Below, one piece after another: positions 11,577 to 63,073 of a stretch of 64,000 bases of DNA. Origin of the DNA: a bacterium (GTDB taxonomy: Bacteria; Patescibacteriota; Patescibacteriia; JBAXGH01); NCBI GenBank assembly GCA_037139515.1, contig JBAXGH010000004.1:7514-71513 (forward strand), read 5' to 3'. A program made the position numbers and the translations under genes. The notes below the pieces were generated by a model. It searched no databases. It saw only the letters and a list, made by a program, of their open reading frames with translations, and was not told the origin of the DNA. Numbering within the stretch: position 1 is the first letter of the stretch; each line of letters starts with the position of its first letter.

Positions 11577-11613
11577 AAAAACCAAAAGCCGGCATAGAGC
11601 GCCGGCTTTTGGT
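11577..11613. terminator. Bidirectional terminator hairpin (14-bp stem)
   Basis: aaccaaaagccggc...gccggcttttggtt, with T-rich sequence on both strands. Confidence 0.5.
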
Positions 11614-11742
11614 TTATTCTTCTTCGTCCTCGTCATCTTCCTCTTCCGCCTCCGCTTCGATCTCTTCAAGGTTTTCTTCTTCGTCGAGTCCTGGCTCTTC
11701 AGGCTTCTTTGCTGCTGGATCTATGAACTTATCGTCTGCCAT
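11614..11742 (-). CDS. Tiny acidic protein (42 aa), MADDKFIDPAAKKPEEPGLDEEE...
   Basis: Open frame with strongly biased D/E composition. The ERIC-like element begins 8 bp upstream of the start. Weak. Confidence 0.3.
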   Translation of the reverse strand: MADDKFIDPAAKKPEEPGLDEEENLEEIEAEAEEEDDEDEEE

Positions 11743-11749
11743 AAATTTT

Positions 11750-11910
11750 AAGTCTGTTACCATATAAGCTCCAACCCAAAATGATAGCTTTCGGCAAACT
11801 CTAGGCGAAAAATTTTTAGCTTAGCAGGGGCTAAACGAAAAATTTTGTCGCCGTCGATTTTGCTCGAAATCTATCATTTTGTCTAAGAAGCTTATATGGC
11901 AACAGACTTA
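11750..11910. repeat. Rod-like palindromic element, copy 1 (ERIC/MITE-like or structured RNA)
   Basis: Terminal inverted repeats taagtctgttaccatataagct / aagcttatatggcaacagactta, with nested complementary halves. A second copy at 45781-45980 shows compensatory changes. Confidence 0.6.
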
Positions 11911-11989
11911 TAGTTAATTTTGTAACTCGGCATATAATACAAAACCAAGCGAAATTTTTCAAAGCCCATTTTCCACAGCCTGTTCACAT

Positions 11990-12170
11990 ATGGCCAGCGC
12001 AAAATAAAATCGCAGGCCTTCCACGCCCCTGAACGCGATTCGCACCATTCTTCCCTTGAAAAAATTCTCAATGTATCTCGATACACCTCAAATTTTTTCA
12101 AGCTCCAGAATGGTGCGACTCATCATTCATCGGCGCGGAATACCTACGATTTTATTTTGCGCTGGCCATT
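11990..12170. repeat. ~180-bp imperfect palindrome centred at ~12078
   Basis: The arms atggccagcgcaaaataaaatcg... and ...cgattttattttgcgctggccat are complementary, as are inner segments. Centre is gtatctcgatac. It is immediately upstream of the membrane-protein gene at 12191. Confidence 0.5.
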
Positions 12171-12190
12171 GGTGCTATAATGTACTCAAT

Positions 12191-12607
12191 ATGATTAGGG
12201 GGAAAAAACTGCTGAAGAAGCGCAAGCTATCTTTGATTGAAAAACTTTACGTGCAACATGCTCATCCGATAAATCTCATCATGACGCTTGTCGGCATTAT
12301 GTGGGGCGTCTACTTTTTGTGGCTGCAAAACATTTTACTCGCGGCGATTTTCGCTTTCGGGTTCATGATTATTGGACATGCTTCTGTTTGGGGTGAAAAC
12401 GAAGATGGTTTAGCGGAAACCTGGCTTGGTAAAATCATGATTTTGCACTCGCACCCAATCAATACTCTTTTTCATCTCGTCGGAACGTTTATTGTCGCCG
12501 TGGGATTGTATTCTAACGTCATCGAGATGATTATGTGGGGCGTAACGATACTGTTATTCGGCCATTTGTGGGGCTGGAGCCGCGTGCATTTACTCGGAGA
12601 AGAATAA
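12191..12607 (+). CDS. Small polytopic membrane protein
   Basis: Start chosen at MIRGKK, downstream of TATAAT. Repeated HPIN..L(V/F)G motifs and hydrophobic segments. Confidence 0.5.
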   Translation: MIRGKKLLKKRKLSLIEKLYVQHAHPINLIMTLVGIMWGVYFLWLQNILLAAIFAFGFMIIGHASVWGENEDGLAETWLGKIMILHSHPINTLFHLVGTFIVAVGLYSNVIEMIMWGVTILLFGHLWGWSRVHLLGEE

Positions 12608-15468: not shown

Positions 15469-15540
15469 AGCGGGTAAAGGGAGTCGAACCCTTGTGTAGG
15501 GTTTGGAAAACCCCCATAATAACCGTTATATGATACCCGC
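15469..15540 (-). tRNA. tRNA-Gly (anticodon UCC)
   Basis: Manual fold: acceptor stem GCGGGTA/TACCCGC, anticodon loop TTTCCAA, T-loop TTCGACT, discriminator U. CCA is not encoded. Confidence 0.8.
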
Positions 15541-15593
15541 ATGGGTATTTTTCTGTTTCGAAATTATACTCAAAGGTGGTTTTTTCGTCTAGT

Positions 15594-15977
15594 CTATGTT
15601 CGTCCGCAACTTTGGCATCTGGTTCCGTATGGTGAGGTGAAGCCGGTCATCGAGCCGTCATTGGCTTTTTGGCAGGTCAGGCAGTAGCTCTGTGCGATTT
15701 TATTGAAAATACAGATATAGCGCGGTTGACCGCTATCAAGCCTCGGCCCGTTTACAATGTGATGGTTCTTTAATAGGGTCAGTTCCTGAACGACTGAATT
15801 TCGGGTTAGGTGGAAACCTTTTCTAAATAGAAGAACTCGAATTTCTTCGATGCCGAAAGCGCGACTCTTAATTGCGAGGATTGAAATCAGCTCGCTTCTA
15901 AGCGGGCTCAGCGCATAGCCGGCATTCTGAAGTTTTCGCAAGATCAAGTTTGCAATCATACTAATCGTATTATACAA
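15594..15977 (-). CDS. Fur-family transcriptional regulator
   Basis: A winged-helix N-terminus (SPLRSELISIL...NSVVQELTLLKNHHIV) and a C-terminal HH/Cys cluster (CLTC...CQSC). Confidence 0.65.
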   Translation of the reverse strand: MYNTISMIANLILRKLQNAGYALSPLRSELISILAIKSRAFGIEEIRVLLFRKGFHLTRNSVVQELTLLKNHHIVNGPRLDSGQPRYICIFNKIAQSYCLTCQKANDGSMTGFTSPYGTRCQSCGRT

Positions 15978-16002
15978 AAATCACAGTTTCCTGTGACTCT
16001 TG

Positions 16003-16079
16003 TGGTCGGGCTGCCGAGACTTGAACTCGGAACCTTCTGCTCCCAAAGCAGACGCGATAGCCAATTACGCTACAGCCCG
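16003..16079 (-). tRNA. tRNA-Pro (anticodon UGG), CCA encoded
   Basis: Manual fold: C1-G72 acceptor stem, anticodon loop TTTGGGA, T-loop TTCAAGT, discriminator A, then CCA. Confidence 0.8.
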
Positions 16080-16305
16080 ATGATATGAGTGTTGCAGTTT
16101 TGTGGTCGGCGCGAATACGAGCCGCGAAGCGGCAGAATCCGGAACGATGACGACGAAAATAGCAATTTTCGATCGTTAGCGGAACGGATTCGAATCGCGA
16201 AGCGATTAAGTATTCGCGTTGCGGTTTCAAAAGTATTACCGAATGAAGCTGGGATGTATCGAGCAGGGCTCGATACACTCCTACCTTTTAAAAACCGCAT
16301 TCCTG

Positions 16306-16377
16306 TGCCGAAGGGCAGAGTCGAACTGCCTACGCCTGCCTCTTCAGGGCAGCGCTCTACCGGTGAGCTACTTCGGC
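16306..16377 (-). tRNA. tRNA-Phe (anticodon GAA)
   Basis: Manual fold: acceptor stem GCCGAAG/CTTCGGC, anticodon loop CTGAAGA, T-loop GTTCGACT, discriminator A. Confidence 0.8.
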
Positions 16378-16452
16378 AAGGGAATACGGTTTTTGATTGT
16401 GCCGTGACTGTCCCAAGGTCAGCCGATAACAGGTATGTTATCACCTAACCCT

Positions 16453-16528
16453 GGTGGGCGTGCCAAGAATCGAACTTGGGACCTCGTCATTATCAGTGAC
16501 GCGCTCTAACCATCTGAGCTACACGCCC
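16453..16528 (-). tRNA. tRNA-Ile (anticodon GAU), CCA encoded
   Basis: Manual fold: acceptor stem GGGCGTG/CACGCCC, anticodon loop CTGATAA, T-loop TTCGATT. It is not adjacent to the 16S gene. Confidence 0.8.
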
Positions 16529-36150: not shown

Positions 36151-36954
36151 TTAGAGCTTAGCGATATCTTTTTGGGACTTACGCCACTCTGCTATCTTTG
36201 CATGATCGCCGGACATCAAAACTTCCGGGACTTTCCATTTTTTATAAACCGCCGGTCGCGTGTACTGCGCGGATTCAAGCACGCCCGGAGTGTTATGAGA
36301 TTCTTCGGTGAGTGATTCGGCGGCGCCCAAGACTCCAGGGATTTGGCGGGCGACGGCATCAATTACAACGAGTGCCGGTAATTCGCCACCGGTTAAAACA
36401 TACGGTCCGATACAAATTTCTTCGTCGATAAGATTTTCCGCGACGCGTTCGTCGATGCCTTCATAGCGACCGCAGAGCATCGTGATGCGTTTATATTTCG
36501 AAAGTCGCATGGCGTCTTGTGCGGTGAATGGTTTGCCTTTCGCTGAAAATAAAATCACGCGTTCAGTTTTTTTGCCGCGCTTGGCTTTGATTGCTTTGAG
36601 TGCGAGATCGAAAGGCTCGACGCGCATGACCATGCCCGGCCCGCCGCCGAAGGGTTTATCATCAACCGACTGATAATTGTTGCCCGACCAGTCACGCAAA
36701 TTATGGGCCGTGACTTTAATCAAGCCAGTGCCGGTTGCCCGACCGATGATGGAAACGCTTGTATACGGAGTAATTACTTCGGGTAAAATGGTTAGGACGT
36801 CGAAAGTTAATTTAGGCCGTAGGCCACAGGCCGTAGGGCGTAGGGCAACGTTTCGAAAAGTAGTACTATGGCCTACGGCCTGCAGCCTACGGCCTAGTAT
36901 TGATTTTTTGTTTTCTTGCTTTCTTGATTTTTTTGTCATAGTAAACTTGTTCAC
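36151..36954 (-). CDS. trmD: tRNA (guanine37-N1)-methyltransferase TrmD with a repeat-encoded N-terminal extension
   Basis: The core from LTFDVLTILPEVITPY to the C-terminus matches TrmD. The first ~47 codons overlap the GGCCGTAGG palindromic repeat, and no canonical start lies right at the core. Confidence 0.8.
   Translation of the reverse strand: MNKFTMTKKSRKQENKKSILGRRLQAVGHSTTFRNVALRPTACGLRPKLTFDVLTILPEVITPYTSVSIIGRATGTGLIKVTAHNLRDWSGNNYQSVDDKPFGGGPGMVMRVEPFDLALKAIKAKRGKKTERVILFSAKGKPFTAQDAMRLSKYKRITMLCGRYEGIDERVAENLIDEEICIGPYVLTGGELPALVVIDAVARQIPGVLGAAESLTEESHNTPGVLESAQYTRPAVYKKWKVPEVLMSGDHAKIAEWRKSQKDIAKL
36813..36897. repeat. ~85-bp palindrome built from GGCCGTAGG-family repeats, inside the trmD 5' region
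   Basis: ggccgtaggccacaggccgtagggcgtaggg (36815-36845) and the inverted partner ggcctacggcctgcagcctacggcc (36870-36894). Confidence 0.65.
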
Positions 36955-42632: not shown

Positions 42633-43763
42633 TCAAGGCTTGAGCTTATTATCGGCGCCGATGGCTTCGGAGATATTTTTAAACCCGTCACGCTTCAAAA
42701 GCTCAATCAATCCGGCATTGATCTCGCCGACTAACTGTGGTCCTTCAAAAATCATACCCGTAATGAGTTGGAGCAGGGAAGCGCCGGCGCGAATTTTTAG
42801 GTAAGCATCTTCGGCGCTAAAAATGCCGCCGCAACCGACAAGCGTAAATCGCGAACCGTATTTTTTATATAAGTGTGAGAGTTGAGCGTTGGCTTTTTCT
42901 TCGACGAGTTTTCCGGAAAGTCCACCGTGAGTCGGGCGCAGCGCCTCGGGAACGGCTTCGTAGGTTTTGGTGAGATTGCTCGAAATCAAGCCTTGAATTC
43001 GGTGGCGCGCGGCGACATCGATCAGCGAATCAAGCTGTTCAAACGTCAGATCCGGTGAAAGTTTTATAAAGATAGGCCGTGGGCCGTAGGCCGTAGGGCG
43101 TAGGGAAACATTTTCGAGCGCAGTGAGCAGCTTTTCTAAGCGCGGGGCATCATTAAAAGGTTGGCCGCCGAATGCATTCGGGCAGCTGATATTGATTGTT
43201 ATGTAATCAGCGGTATCTTTTACGGCTTCCAGGGCGGCGCCATAGTCCGCAATCGCGGCTTCGTCTTCGGCGGTTTCGGCGCAATTAGTTTTAGCGATAC
43301 TTACTCCGACCGGAAAACGATGAGACACGGCGTGTAAACGAACCGCGACATTCGCCGCGCCTTCGTTCTTTAAACCATACCAAACCACAAGTGATTGCTG
43401 ATCTTTGAGGCGCCAGAGCCGCGGTTTTGGATTTCCCGCGCAGGTTTTTCCTGTGACTGATCCGGCTTCCATAAAGCCGAATCCAACGTCAGGCAAAATA
43501 TTTAAAAGATGAGCGTCTTTATCAAAACCGGCGGCGAGTCCAACCGGATTTTTAAATTCAAGTCCGCGAATATTTTGGACGAGCGACGGGTCTTCGATAT
43601 GAAAAGCTAAGCGAGTGAAAAATCGAGTCACCGAAAAGCGCCCGAGAAACTCGCCGAGGTGAGTCATCGAATCATGAACATCTTCCGGGTCGCGGCGAAA
43701 GAAAAGCGGTTTGGCTAGATTTTTGTAAATGAATCGTGATGTGGCGTGAAAAACTTTTTTCAT
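42633..43763 (-). CDS. pyrD: Dihydroorotate dehydrogenase (quinone type) carrying an in-frame repeat insertion
   Basis: A DHOD family-2 layout (NPVGLAAGFDKDAHLLNILPDVGFGFMEAGSVTGKTCAGNPKPRLWRL; GGIFSAEDAYLKIRAGASL). The segment SLRPTAYGPRPI is encoded by the GGCCGTAGG repeat at 43075-43105. Confidence 0.85.
   Translation of the reverse strand: MKKVFHATSRFIYKNLAKPLFFRRDPEDVHDSMTHLGEFLGRFSVTRFFTRLAFHIEDPSLVQNIRGLEFKNPVGLAAGFDKDAHLLNILPDVGFGFMEAGSVTGKTCAGNPKPRLWRLKDQQSLVVWYGLKNEGAANVAVRLHAVSHRFPVGVSIAKTNCAETAEDEAAIADYGAALEAVKDTADYITINISCPNAFGGQPFNDAPRLEKLLTALENVSLRPTAYGPRPIFIKLSPDLTFEQLDSLIDVAARHRIQGLISSNLTKTYEAVPEALRPTHGGLSGKLVEEKANAQLSHLYKKYGSRFTLVGCGGIFSAEDAYLKIRAGASLLQLITGMIFEGPQLVGEINAGLIELLKRDGFKNISEAIGADNKLKP
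43075..43105. repeat. GGCCGTGGGCCGTAGGCCGTAGGGCGTAGGG repeat, in frame within pyrD
   Basis: The same 31-mer family occurs at 36815-36845 and 62008-62037. Confidence 0.65.
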
Positions 43764-45424: not shown

Positions 45425-45751
45425 TCAGGTCGGGGTGAAAAGACGAATGGCTTCGATGGCCTCGCATTCACGGCAGTAGCCGTGGCGAAGTTCTTCGGGG
45501 TTGTTTTCTTCCATGCGGGTACGGCGCCAGCGTCTCGCGGTCAATCGGAACATCATCGTGTTCATAGCGGCGTCGTCGTGGCCGTGAAACTCACTTGTTG
45601 CGCAGTCGGCGCCATCATGATTCGCGCAAAGCAGGTTCTCGTGGATAATCTTGAGTGCCGCAGACTCGTTTTCAGCTTCCACGACTGCGGTTTCACGCGG
45701 AGGTTCTTTTGAAGCGCCACGAGTTTCAAAAAAGTGCACAGCGATGAGCAT
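45425..45751 (-). CDS. Small Cys/His-rich hypothetical protein, higher-GC
   Basis: Start set at MLIAVHFF. The longer ORF would run into the palindromic element. HGYCRECEAI and CANHDGADC clusters. Confidence 0.4.
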   Translation of the reverse strand: MLIAVHFFETRGASKEPPRETAVVEAENESAALKIIHENLLCANHDGADCATSEFHGHDDAAMNTMMFRLTARRWRRTRMEENNPEELRHGYCRECEAIEAIRLFTPT

Positions 45752-45780: not shown

Positions 45781-45980
45781 TAAGCCTGTTGCCATTTAAG
45801 CTCCAGCTCAAAATGGTAGCTTTCGGCAAACTCTAGGTAAAATATTTTTACCCTTCTACTTATGTTAAATAAGTCGGGTACCCTGTGGCTTAGCTATGGC
45901 TAAACAAAAAATATTTTACCGTCGACTTTGCTCGAAATCTACCTATTTTTATCAGGAAGCTTAAATGGCAACAGGCTTAC
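45781..45980. repeat. Rod-like palindromic element, copy 2
   Basis: Perfect 22-bp terminal inverted repeats, taagcctgttgccatttaagct and its reverse complement. Internal complementary halves. Homologous to 11750-11910. Confidence 0.6.
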
Positions 45981-46037
45981 TGGTTTGCTTATCACAAAAA
46001 CAAAAGCCCGGCAAGACCCGGGCTTTCGTTTGATGCC

Positions 46038-61918: not shown

Positions 61919-63073
61919 ATGAACCTCGATTCAACGACGCTCCGATATATTGCCGTGGCTTTGACCGCTCTCGCCGGAGGACTCTATTGGTTTTGGAATC
62001 GCGGTGAGGCCGTAGGCCATCGGCCGCAGGGCGTAGGAGTGCTCAAAAATCTTACCGAACTTGCAAAAACCGGGGCGCTTGATGCCGTCATCGGTCGCGA
62101 TGATGAGATCGATCGCATTATCCAAATCATCCAGCGACGCACCAAAAATAATCCTTTATTGCTTGGCGACCCGGGAGTAGGGAAGACGGCTATCGTTGAA
62201 GGTCTCGCAGTTCGAATCATTAAAAACAATGTTCCGAAGGCTTTACAGGGAAAACAGATATTTGAACTTTCGGTCGCCGAACTGATTGCCGGCACCAAAT
62301 ATCGCGGAGAATTTGAGGAGCGCTTACGTGGCGTTATGAAGGAATTAGAGAAGGCTCCGCGTCAGACGATTTTGTTTGTTGATGAGATTCATCTACTCGA
62401 GCAAACCAAGGGCGCCGAGGGCGCAGTTTCGGCTTCCGATGTTTTGAAGCCAGCGCTTGCTCGTGGTGATGTTTCGATTATCGGTGCCACGACACTCAAA
62501 GAATACGAAGAATATATTCGCCCGAACACGGCGCTCGATCGTAGGTTTCAACCGGTTTTGGTTGCTGAACCGACTCCGGAAGCGGCGCTTGCTGTGCTTC
62601 GTGGTATCGCAAACTTATACGAGAAGCATCACGACGTGATTATCGACGACGACGCGCTTGAAGCCGCGGTCACGCTTTCGATTGAAAAATTAAAGGGTCG
62701 TCGTTTGCCGGACAAAGCGATTGATATCATCGACGAAGCTTCGGCCAAGGTCGCGATTGAAATGCAGGGCGCGCACGCAACGGCCATCGGTGTTATGCAT
62801 GCTGCCGCTGAGAAGTCTCGCGAGAGAGCCGCCAAAGAACGCCAGGATATCGGATTCGAAACCAAGCATTTAGAGGAGTTGTCGAAGAAGTATCCCGGCG
62901 ATCCGGCTCTCATGAGCGCGGAGAAAACCCTGCAGAGACATGAAGCAGAGCTCGCGGTCGTGGCTTCGGCGCGGGTTTCGGACGATGGTCGGGCGCGGGT
63001 TTTGCGCAAAGACGTGGAAGAAGTCATCGCCGCCTGGGCGGATCTTGGAAAAGCCGAGGAAAAATCAAAATAA
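61919..63073 (+). CDS. Clp/Hsp100 D1-type AAA+ ATPase (single domain, membrane-anchored) with an in-frame repeat
   Basis: LDAVIGRDDEIDRIIQIIQRRTKNNPLLLGDPGVGKTAIVEGLAVRI...GTKYRGEFEERL matches ClpA/B D1. N-terminal TM segment. EAVGHRPQGVGV is encoded by the 62008-62037 repeat. Confidence 0.7.
   Translation: MNLDSTTLRYIAVALTALAGGLYWFWNRGEAVGHRPQGVGVLKNLTELAKTGALDAVIGRDDEIDRIIQIIQRRTKNNPLLLGDPGVGKTAIVEGLAVRIIKNNVPKALQGKQIFELSVAELIAGTKYRGEFEERLRGVMKELEKAPRQTILFVDEIHLLEQTKGAEGAVSASDVLKPALARGDVSIIGATTLKEYEEYIRPNTALDRRFQPVLVAEPTPEAALAVLRGIANLYEKHHDVIIDDDALEAAVTLSIEKLKGRRLPDKAIDIIDEASAKVAIEMQGAHATAIGVMHAAAEKSRERAAKERQDIGFETKHLEELSKKYPGDPALMSAEKTLQRHEAELAVVASARVSDDGRARVLRKDVEEVIAAWADLGKAEEKSK
62008..62037. 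repeat. GGCCGTAGGCCATCGGCCGCAGGGCGTAGG repeat, in frame within the Clp-like gene
   Basis: Third member of the 31-bp GGCCGTAGG family. Confidence 0.6.

Follow-up and report, generated by a model that had tools for sequence, protein, structure and literature searches.

The window analysed here, a stretch of 64,000 nt from a Patescibacteria genome, carries two related rod-like palindromes, copy A in front of a small acidic open reading frame (ORF) and copy B in front of a 108-aa gene (Table 1). In a sequence-only reading of the window these had been placed at 11750-11910 and 45781-45980; their ends were found here within 1 nt of those positions, and both are near-perfect hairpins related to each other. 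The two elements are likely members of a previously undescribed family of non-autonomous palindromic repeats resembling miniature inverted-repeat transposable elements (MITEs), with at least 10 copies in one Patescibacteria genome.

Copies A and B each fold into a single near-complete long hairpin rod. RNA minimum free energies were -86.2 kcal/mol (minus strand) and -71.9 to -72.5 kcal/mol (plus strand) for copy A, and -91.6 and -85.8 to -86.3 kcal/mol for copy B; z-scores of the plus-strand folds were -11.4 (A) and -13.2 (B), and 0 of 200 shuffles folded as well. The 22-nt terminal repeat TAAGYCTGTTRCCATWTAAGCT had four exact matches in the window, namely both arms of both copies, and none in 100 shuffled sequences, while the internal motif GCTTTCGGCAAACTCTAGG was matched once in each copy, which bears out the shared terminal inverted repeats and internal sequence of the sequence-only reading. 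Outside the 37-nt insert of copy B, the two copies share 82% column identity, and the differences that had been described as matched between arms (GGCGA/TCGCC against GGTAA/TTACC, and T:A against C:G in the terminal repeat) were recovered and extend across the family. As had also been observed, both copies lie in the same orientation directly 5' of minus-strand ORFs, at 6 nt from the ATG at 11742 (copy A) and 29 nt from the ATG at 45751 (copy B).

Table 1. The two palindromic elements and the features next to them, in window positions
Feature	Position	Strand	Evidence and remarks
Copy A, basic form, 162 nt	11749..11910	-	better-folding strand; covariance model 174.5 bits minus, 101 plus
Copy B, basic form with one nested module, 199 nt	45781..45979	-	covariance model 150.7 bits minus
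Copy A terminal inverted repeat, helix 1 arm	11749..11772		partner 11887-11910; exact pattern match; helix 1 of 24 pairs, 97.9% paired
Copy A terminal inverted repeat, other arm	11887..11910		pattern match, helix 1
Copy B terminal inverted repeat	45781..45804		partner 45956-45979; pattern match, helix 1
Copy B terminal inverted repeat, other arm	45956..45979		pattern match, helix 1
Nested 37-nt hairpin module of copy B	45851..45887	-	minus strand reads CACAGGGTACCCGACTTATTTAACATAAGTAGAAGGG; absent from copy A; alignments
Small acidic ORF downstream of copy A	11614..11763	-	42 aa from ATG 11742, or 49 aa from in-frame terminal-repeat ATG; no Pfam match
Terminator-like hairpin closing copy A and acidic ORF unit	11579..11615		closes a small transcription unit
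Promoter-like site TTGAAA-17-TATTAT pointing into copy A	11934..11962	-	consensus match only; -10 ends 23 nt before element
108-aa gene after copy B	45425..45751	-	own AAGGAG ribosome-binding site 7 nt before ATG; no Pfam match
Terminator-like hairpin and T-run of upstream 388-aa gene	45992..46026	-	read from sequence; not flagged by scan

Copies in the probable host genome

The wider search for copies showed that the family is not limited to the two in the window: eight more were found, so that at least 10 full copies are present at 10 unrelated loci, each with different flanking genes (~138 kb of sequence from the same probable genome). In a metagenome scan, full elements were identified on six contigs of one JGI metagenome (Ga0194060 = 3300021602). 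With a covariance model of the eight copies then known, a ninth, much more diverged copy was detected at L007:5719-5881 (L007b; copies outside the window are named here by the sequence that holds them), and a tenth copy was found by covariance model at L031:15995-16156 (L031b). No further copy was detected by the model in the window beyond A and B, and none was present in 29 kb from two related genomes. Two copies in an unselected 64-kb window suggest a density of ~30 copies per Mb. Pairwise identity among nine copies was 82-91% (median 86%); L007b is 55-62% identical to the rest and represents a diverged subfamily. Two Logan short-read contigs end inside copies (L026, which ends at window position 45888, and L033:1-67), so the element acts as an assembly breakpoint.

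Homologues of the window's SMC, RlmD and ATPase proteins carry the names Candidatus Uhrbacteria, Patescibacteria or Parcubacteria, with identities of only 50-68% even for the nearest relatives. Between the Ga0194060 contigs and the window there is no synteny. Tetranucleotide usage of those longer than 10 kb correlated with that of the window at r = 0.89-0.96, compared with 0.97 for one half of the window against the other and 0.88 for the relative at 68% identity. Genes of the window and of L019 co-occur in the same three samples (JGI 3300021602, ENA ERZ27300037 and Logan SRR7053541), and the sequences of the three independent assemblies agree with one another at 99.99-100% identity. On these sequence comparisons, the copy-bearing contigs and the window most likely belong to a single Patescibacteria (Uhrbacteria-like) population genome. 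Origin of the six metagenome contigs from a different organism, with horizontal transfer of the repeat, was rejected on the basis of the tetranucleotide match and the co-occurrence in the same three samples.

Anatomy and maintenance of the rod

All ten copies start with TAAG and end with CTTA, with TA at both ends, and their flanks are unrelated right up to these bases. The 24-bp terminal helix is 97.5% paired across the ten copies, and GC content is 35-44% in the copies against 48.8% in the window. The basic unit measures 162-163 nt; longer forms measure 199 nt (copy B, with one 37-nt module) and 235 nt (L019/L031a, with two modules). The nested module is flanked by YA...TA, and its core GTACCCGACTTA was present only inside element copies in the sequence examined. 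In L019/L031a the two modules occupy mirror positions, yet both are in direct orientation. Beyond the outer TAAGCC, the terminal stems of L007b have an entirely different sequence, but the rod itself, the places of its internal loops and bulges, and the apical stem GTTTAGCC-NNNN-GCTAAGC are all preserved in this copy. Its neighbour on the same contig, L007a, lies 3.5 kb away in the opposite orientation.

Maintenance of pairing was analysed in two alignments, one of eight copies made with MAFFT, for which the structure was taken from individual folds, and one of ten copies aligned to the covariance model. In the eight-copy set, 97.5% of cells were in standard pairs and 16 of 69 pairs had changed on both sides, and 0 of 500 shuffles reached either value; when partner columns were slid by 1-3 positions, 0-3 double-changed pairs were counted. 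In the ten-copy set, 96.8% of cells were paired and 33 of 69 pairs had changed on both sides (0 of 500 shuffles; slid controls 2-5); the model-guided alignment is biased towards structure, and L007b still folds into the same rod by itself. Copies differ by ~14%, yet just 3.2% of cells are unpaired, and far more breakage would be expected if pairing were unconstrained. Internal loops, a 3-by-2 loop and single-base bulges are fixed in all ten copies including L007b. The pairing of the rod is maintained through compensatory substitutions, and its fixed loops and bulges are retained.

Such arm matching could in principle be a neutral by-product of repair or replication, by quasi-palindrome correction through template switching or by arm conversion and with no selection on the fold; template switching can copy one palindrome arm onto the other and so mimic compensatory change, but this account is very improbable, since correction would erase imperfections, whereas the same loops, 3-by-2 loop and bulges persist in all ten copies, and it predicts neither the excess of G·U over A·C wobble pairs nor the stepwise substitution path at columns 37/206 that are described below.

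The two strands of the element are not equivalent. Minimum free energies on the better-folding (favoured) strand ranged from -75 to -94 kcal/mol, with z-scores of -11 to -13 for both window copies and L007b, and in nine of ten copies (exception, L016) the more stable fold was on the same element strand, which is the minus strand of the window and the one on which each copy has its higher covariance-model score. Favoured and opposite strands gave -86.2 and -72.5 kcal/mol in copy A, -83.4 and -56.6 kcal/mol in L023, and -93.9 and -82.2 kcal/mol in L007b. Wobble events on the favoured strand comprised 15 G·U and 4 A·C (two-sided p = 0.019, each column-and-state counted once; an A·C on this strand is a G·U on the opposite strand). 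At columns 37/206, three copies have G at 206; two of these have T·G and L031a has the compensated C-G, a stepwise path. The bias follows the polarity of the element and not the direction of neighbouring genes, because L007b, antisense to both neighbours, still shows it. DNA energy parameters favoured the same strand as RNA parameters; the bias therefore shows selection, or a mutational bias, acting on one strand in single-stranded form, and does not tell RNA from single-stranded DNA.

Insertion sites and gene boundaries

Filled and empty sites could be compared at one locus. In L031, a 235-nt copy (L031a) lies between the divergent genes for SpoU and RlmD, and the corresponding spacers of relatives L029 (6 nt) and L030 (21 nt) contain no element. 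These are the closest relatives available, with RlmD identities to L031 of 67% (L029) and 57% (L030); SpoU is intact along its length and is 62% and 54% identical to the L029 and L030 copies. The comparison of these loci identifies at least one copy as inserted with respect to the related genomes. For the window copies no empty site could be compared: the P-type ATPase beside copy A had no relative closer than 51% identity, and around copy B the SMC contig of the nearest relative (L027, 68% identity), which lacks the element, shows no synteny.

Empty sites were rebuilt in two ways at SpoU/RlmD and at Dus/RsmE (the L031b site), with a single TA left or with flush removal of the element. At SpoU/RlmD, the single-TA model gives the SpoU N-terminus NEIVVLILDNIR with a GTG start and the flush model gives MRLVLILDNIR, compared with MATDL-VLILDNIR when the element is present; the N-termini of the relatives' proteins are MEIVLILDNIR and MLAMILENIR, so both models are tenable there. 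At Dus/RsmE, the single-TA model gives proteins of 308 and 233 aa, close to the 309 and 233 aa with the element; the flush model lengthens them to 328 and 248 aa, and the two convergent genes then overlap over a long stretch. A TA target is consistent with both sites as reconstructed and is favoured at Dus/RsmE. Flush insertion without target duplication, suggested by the SpoU/RlmD comparison, was dropped as an explanation in view of the Dus/RsmE reconstruction.

The contexts of the copies are mixed (given with the favoured strand read 5' to 3'). Copy A is followed by the 42-aa acidic ORF and a terminator; the terminator-like hairpin of the 388-aa gene places copy B between that terminator and the ribosome-binding site of the next gene. 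L007a follows RelA/SpoT and precedes a 473-aa gene (43 nt); L031a is 10 nt from the ATG of RlmD and 0 nt from a GTG of SpoU; L012 lies between a divergent TrmB-like gene (4 nt) and TypA (558 nt). L016 is antisense, with a 522-aa gene on one side (7 nt from the start of that gene) and a P-type ATPase on the other, and L007b is antisense after the TopA terminator. L017 and L023 lie at convergent gene ends, and L031b lies between the convergent Dus and RsmE. A co-directional gene start thus lies downstream of five of the ten copies, at 6-43 nt in four of them and at 558 nt for L012.

Copies sit in very short spacers at gene starts and ends, and their termini supply outward ATG codons and inward TAA stops. 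The stop codon of RsmE is the first TAA of L031b, and Dus ends 18 nt inside the other end of this copy; both Pfam domains are complete. The terminal-repeat ATG (ATGGCAACAGACTTA, followed directly by GTG...) is in frame with SpoU, and likewise with the acidic ORF that follows copy A. This ATG and the open frames of the element distort public annotation, which extends genes into the repeat: the SpoU call (L031:8988-9545) has 185 aa compared with 147-148 aa in the relatives, and the 49-aa form of the acidic ORF is the public call (L034:9002-9151). At L031:9640-9660 the terminal-repeat ATG on the RlmD side of L031a carries a mutation (TTATCTGG in place of TTAAATGG or TTATATGG). An unmutated ATG would give RlmD an upstream start in the wrong frame; as this is a single case, it may be chance. 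The 42-aa ORF at 11614-11742 is extremely acidic (…EEENLEEIEAEAEEEDDEDEEE) and forms with its surroundings a compact unit of promoter, hairpin, ORF and terminator, a putative gene. A hairpin that bridges an upstream ribosome-binding site to a downstream start codon was considered and dropped, as no such site lies on the far side of any copy.

Promoter-like sites pointing inward were found on the favoured side of three of ten copies (copy A, L007a and L031a) and on the other side of none (consensus match; small numbers), with the -10 hexamer 23, 5 and 6 nt from the element, respectively. The RlmD promoter-like site, TTGTAA-17-TAGAAT, is located inside the SpoU coding sequence, and L029 has its counterpart TTGTAC-17-TAGAAT with the same spacing at the corresponding position. 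Given its distance from this hexamer, the L031a element should now form the start of the RlmD mRNA. The proposal of the sequence-only reading that the elements could be transcribed leaders applies at most to a subset, the five copies with a co-directional gene start downstream and the three with a promoter-like site; it does not apply to the copies at convergent ends or in antisense, and the downstream genes are unrelated.

Probable mobile repeats and competing accounts

Bacterial MITEs are typically shorter than ~200 bp and AT-rich, have terminal inverted repeats and TA termini, give long stem-loop transcripts, occur in short and long forms and can form ORF fusions (PMC2229807). The family matches in size (162-235 nt), dispersal, inverted repeats, TA ends and AT-rich sequence, predicted stem-loop and a filled and empty site at one locus. 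The ERIC-like reading first made from the two window copies is thus supported by copy number, dispersal, TA ends, 24-bp inverted repeats, AT-rich sequence, covariation in the hairpin, size variants and the one filled/empty locus. By analogy of these traits, the family belongs to a familiar type, that of ERIC, Correia and Rickettsia palindromic elements (RPE), and is not a new category.

ERIC, for one, is not known to have a cognate autonomous element or transposase. ERIC/IRU (127 bp) and Correia/NEMIS (~107 and 155 bp) are, like the present family, small non-coding AT-rich repeats with inverted repeats and 5'-TA-3' ends, for which a single long stem-loop transcript with the 5' end paired to the 3' end is predicted; they also occur as short and long forms distinguished by an internal segment, and lie at gene boundaries, sometimes with ORF fusions (PMC2229807). 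No sequence similarity to ERIC or Correia was seen in a comparison made without formal alignment to their consensus sequences, and the family comes from an uncultivated Patescibacteria bacterium instead of a proteobacterium. At 24 bp, the terminal repeat is Correia-like and longer than the 7 bp of ERIC; unlike in ERIC and Correia, the extra internal segment is itself a small hairpin and can occur twice in direct orientation. RPE sequence contributes codons to host proteins, and is typically found in frame inside genes, where it is translated as a peptide segment. The present copies differ in lying at extreme gene ends, where a copy adds no more than a start codon with 4 codons, or a stop codon with at most 6 codons; they resemble RPE, which are listed among ORF-bearing elements (PMC2229807), in being palindromic repeats of a reduced genome tolerated at or inside coding genes. 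If the TA ends of the family are target duplications, the best mechanistic model is RUP of Streptococcus pneumoniae, a ~107-bp MITE inserting at TA (PMC2229807); RUP has a candidate partner insertion sequence with matching ends (IS630-Spn1), whereas no partner is known for the family.

In the proposed mechanism, the family would spread, or would once have spread, by transposition into TA sites through an enzyme supplied in trans. With intergenic spacers this small, most copies would be transcribed into neighbouring mRNAs as a compact stem-loop, several of them at or near the mRNA 5' end. Only hairpin-competent variants would persist, either because mobilisation requires the element to fold as a single strand of defined polarity, or because an unfolded 160-nt insert beside a start or stop codon would be harmful. 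The family is probably old. Its presence at gene edges is probably tolerated since the element folds away and brings start and stop codons with its termini.

Several observations weigh against a MITE-like family of this kind. The comparison of filled and empty sites comes from one locus with distant relatives (57-67% protein identity), and the SpoU/RlmD site fits flush insertion about equally well, so that TA duplication is not proven. No transposase with matching ends was present in ~170 kb of this genome or in the relatives' contigs, and no DDE or HUH transposase of any kind was found in the same ~170 kb. Across the two subfamilies the element centre is more conserved than the termini, the opposite of what is expected for a transposase that reads terminal repeats. 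A search for AAGNCTGTTNCCATNTAAGCT (18 fixed bases) in 185,579 species-representative genomes gave five single matches in unrelated taxa, with ~17 expected by chance; matches at chance level mean that the genome of the window is absent from that collection, and spread beyond the lineage is unshown. The sequence examined contained no solo terminal repeats. Recent movement was not seen either: no pair of copies is more than 91% identical, and the three assemblies have the same copies at the same sites, with no presence/absence differences. Beside these, the terminal-repeat pattern had one single chance-level match in viral contigs, and Pfam scans of neighbouring and unannotated ORFs returned no transposase. 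The only recombinase seen close to a copy is a large serine recombinase with Resolvase, Recombinase and zinc-ribbon domains (L012:7241-8923), 870 nt away from the copy in L012; no evidence ties it to the repeat.

The rods may be more than passengers, although this is unlikely: the hairpin of fixed polarity could have been co-opted in a minimal genome as a 5'-terminal transcribed module that protects or processes the mRNA and supplies start and stop codons, so that insertion directly at gene boundaries would be permitted, or the family could move through a strand-specific single-stranded intermediate with an unrecognised enzyme. Both readings are kept in view because of the strand-biased wobble pairs, the conserved centre with divergent termini, the nested modules in direct orientation and the lack of a transposase in ~170 kb.

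A functional family of structured RNAs, acting as cis leaders or small RNAs and with the rod selected at the RNA level for stability, RNase III processing or translation, is quite improbable. It would account for wobble pairs that favour one strand, for an apical stem and internal loops conserved where the outer stems have diverged, and for the promoter-like sites before copy A, L007a and L031a, the hairpin of the latter two then being at the very 5' end of the mRNA; five copies have a co-directional gene start downstream (four within 6-43 nt), and a gene for RNase III is present in the window. Yet the genes downstream of the copies are not related to one another (they encode the acidic peptide, hypothetical proteins, RlmD and TypA), two copies (L016 and L007b) run antisense to the genes on either side, three (L031b, L023 and L017) are placed where genes converge at their 3' ends, and the SpoU/RlmD site is empty in two relatives. 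DNA energy parameters favour the same strand, and TA ends with a nested module are typical of mobile repeats. At gathering thresholds, only rRNA and tRNAs passed Rfam in the window; around copy A, searches to an E-value of 10 returned plant microRNA-precursor models only, far below threshold, which is generic long-hairpin noise. Because the neighbours are unrelated housekeeping genes, the contexts are mixed and no Rfam match was obtained, the element is not a dedicated leader or riboswitch-type RNA. Plasmid single-strand origins, 6S RNA and signal recognition particle (SRP) RNA had also been considered and were dropped, as motifs, context and copy number do not fit.

Mobilisation as a single-stranded DNA hairpin by a structure-reading enzyme (an HUH/Y1 transposase as in REPIN/RAYT or IS200/IS605-derived systems, or a recombinase of folded DNA) instead of a DDE transposase that binds terminal repeats is likewise quite improbable. 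The full-length hairpin has invariant bulges and loops, features used by enzymes that read folded DNA, its strand bias also holds under DNA parameters, its centre is more conserved than its termini, and the SpoU/RlmD site is compatible with flush insertion. REPINs provide a documented case of compensatory changes of the same kind in mobile DNA hairpins, for which selection on the single-stranded fold has been proposed (PMC3116915). REPINs differ in consisting of two short GC-rich REP palindromes, and their RAYT gene is flanked by REPs; the arms of the present family are AT-rich and are not palindromes themselves, its termini have no REP-like GC-rich palindromes with GTAG or CGTC heads, and no RAYT/Y1 transposase was among the Pfam results for the loci examined, nor any Y1/HUH gene in ~170 kb. 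IS200/IS605-derived elements have a conserved 4-5-nt target and subterminal hairpins and lack inverted repeats, whereas the family has full inverted repeats and no conserved tetra- or pentanucleotide target beside one end. The opposite orientations of the two L007 copies and the Dus/RsmE site, which favours a TA target, also argue against such an enzyme. Integron attC sites were dropped as a candidate, as the termini TGGCAAC/GTTGCCA do not fit RYYYAAC...GTTRRRY cores and the copies are single and dispersed among housekeeping genes, unlike attC sites, which form cassette arrays beside an integrase gene.

Genomes of the candidate phyla radiation measure ~1 Mb and have very short intergenic spacers. 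No description of MITEs in these bacteria was found; a full-text literature search that combined MITEs with Patescibacteria gave just two incidental mentions. Read as MITE-like repeats, the copies described here indicate that small palindromic mobile repeats do colonise such reduced genomes, at the exact edges of housekeeping genes, where they distort public gene calls (the 185-aa SpoU, the 49-aa ORF starting at a repeat ATG) and break short-read assemblies. The family provides a clean case for asking whether covariation in mobile-DNA hairpins reflects RNA function or the mechanism of mobilisation.

Further inverted repeats were seen in the window, which was surveyed by self-BLAST. A second, unrelated rod palindrome of ~180 nt (ATGGCCAGCGCAAAATAAAATCG...CGATTTTATTTTGCGCTGGCCAT) occupies 11990-12169, in the intergenic region that also contains copy A and 80 nt away from that copy; the minimum free energy of this palindrome is -124.7 kcal/mol on the minus and -99.4 kcal/mol on the plus strand (z-scores ~-15 and -14), and no other copy was found in the window or the fetched loci. 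Because of this palindrome the listed ORF at 12056-12607 looks overlong, and the gene probably starts at ATG 12191. An 84-nt palindrome of TAGGCCG-like heptamers at 36813-36896 has shorter, partial counterparts at 43073-43113 and 62007-62037 and may represent a further family of short repeats. An inverted repeat at 2704-2814 (AAAGGGGACTGTCCCTTTTCC...) has 30-nt arms with 83% complementarity and a gap of 51 nt between them. On the minus strand, a complete 16S rRNA gene is located at 33424-34920; the 64-kb window gave no 23S rRNA match, which suggests that the rRNA genes are not linked. Four tRNA genes are clustered at 15469-16528.

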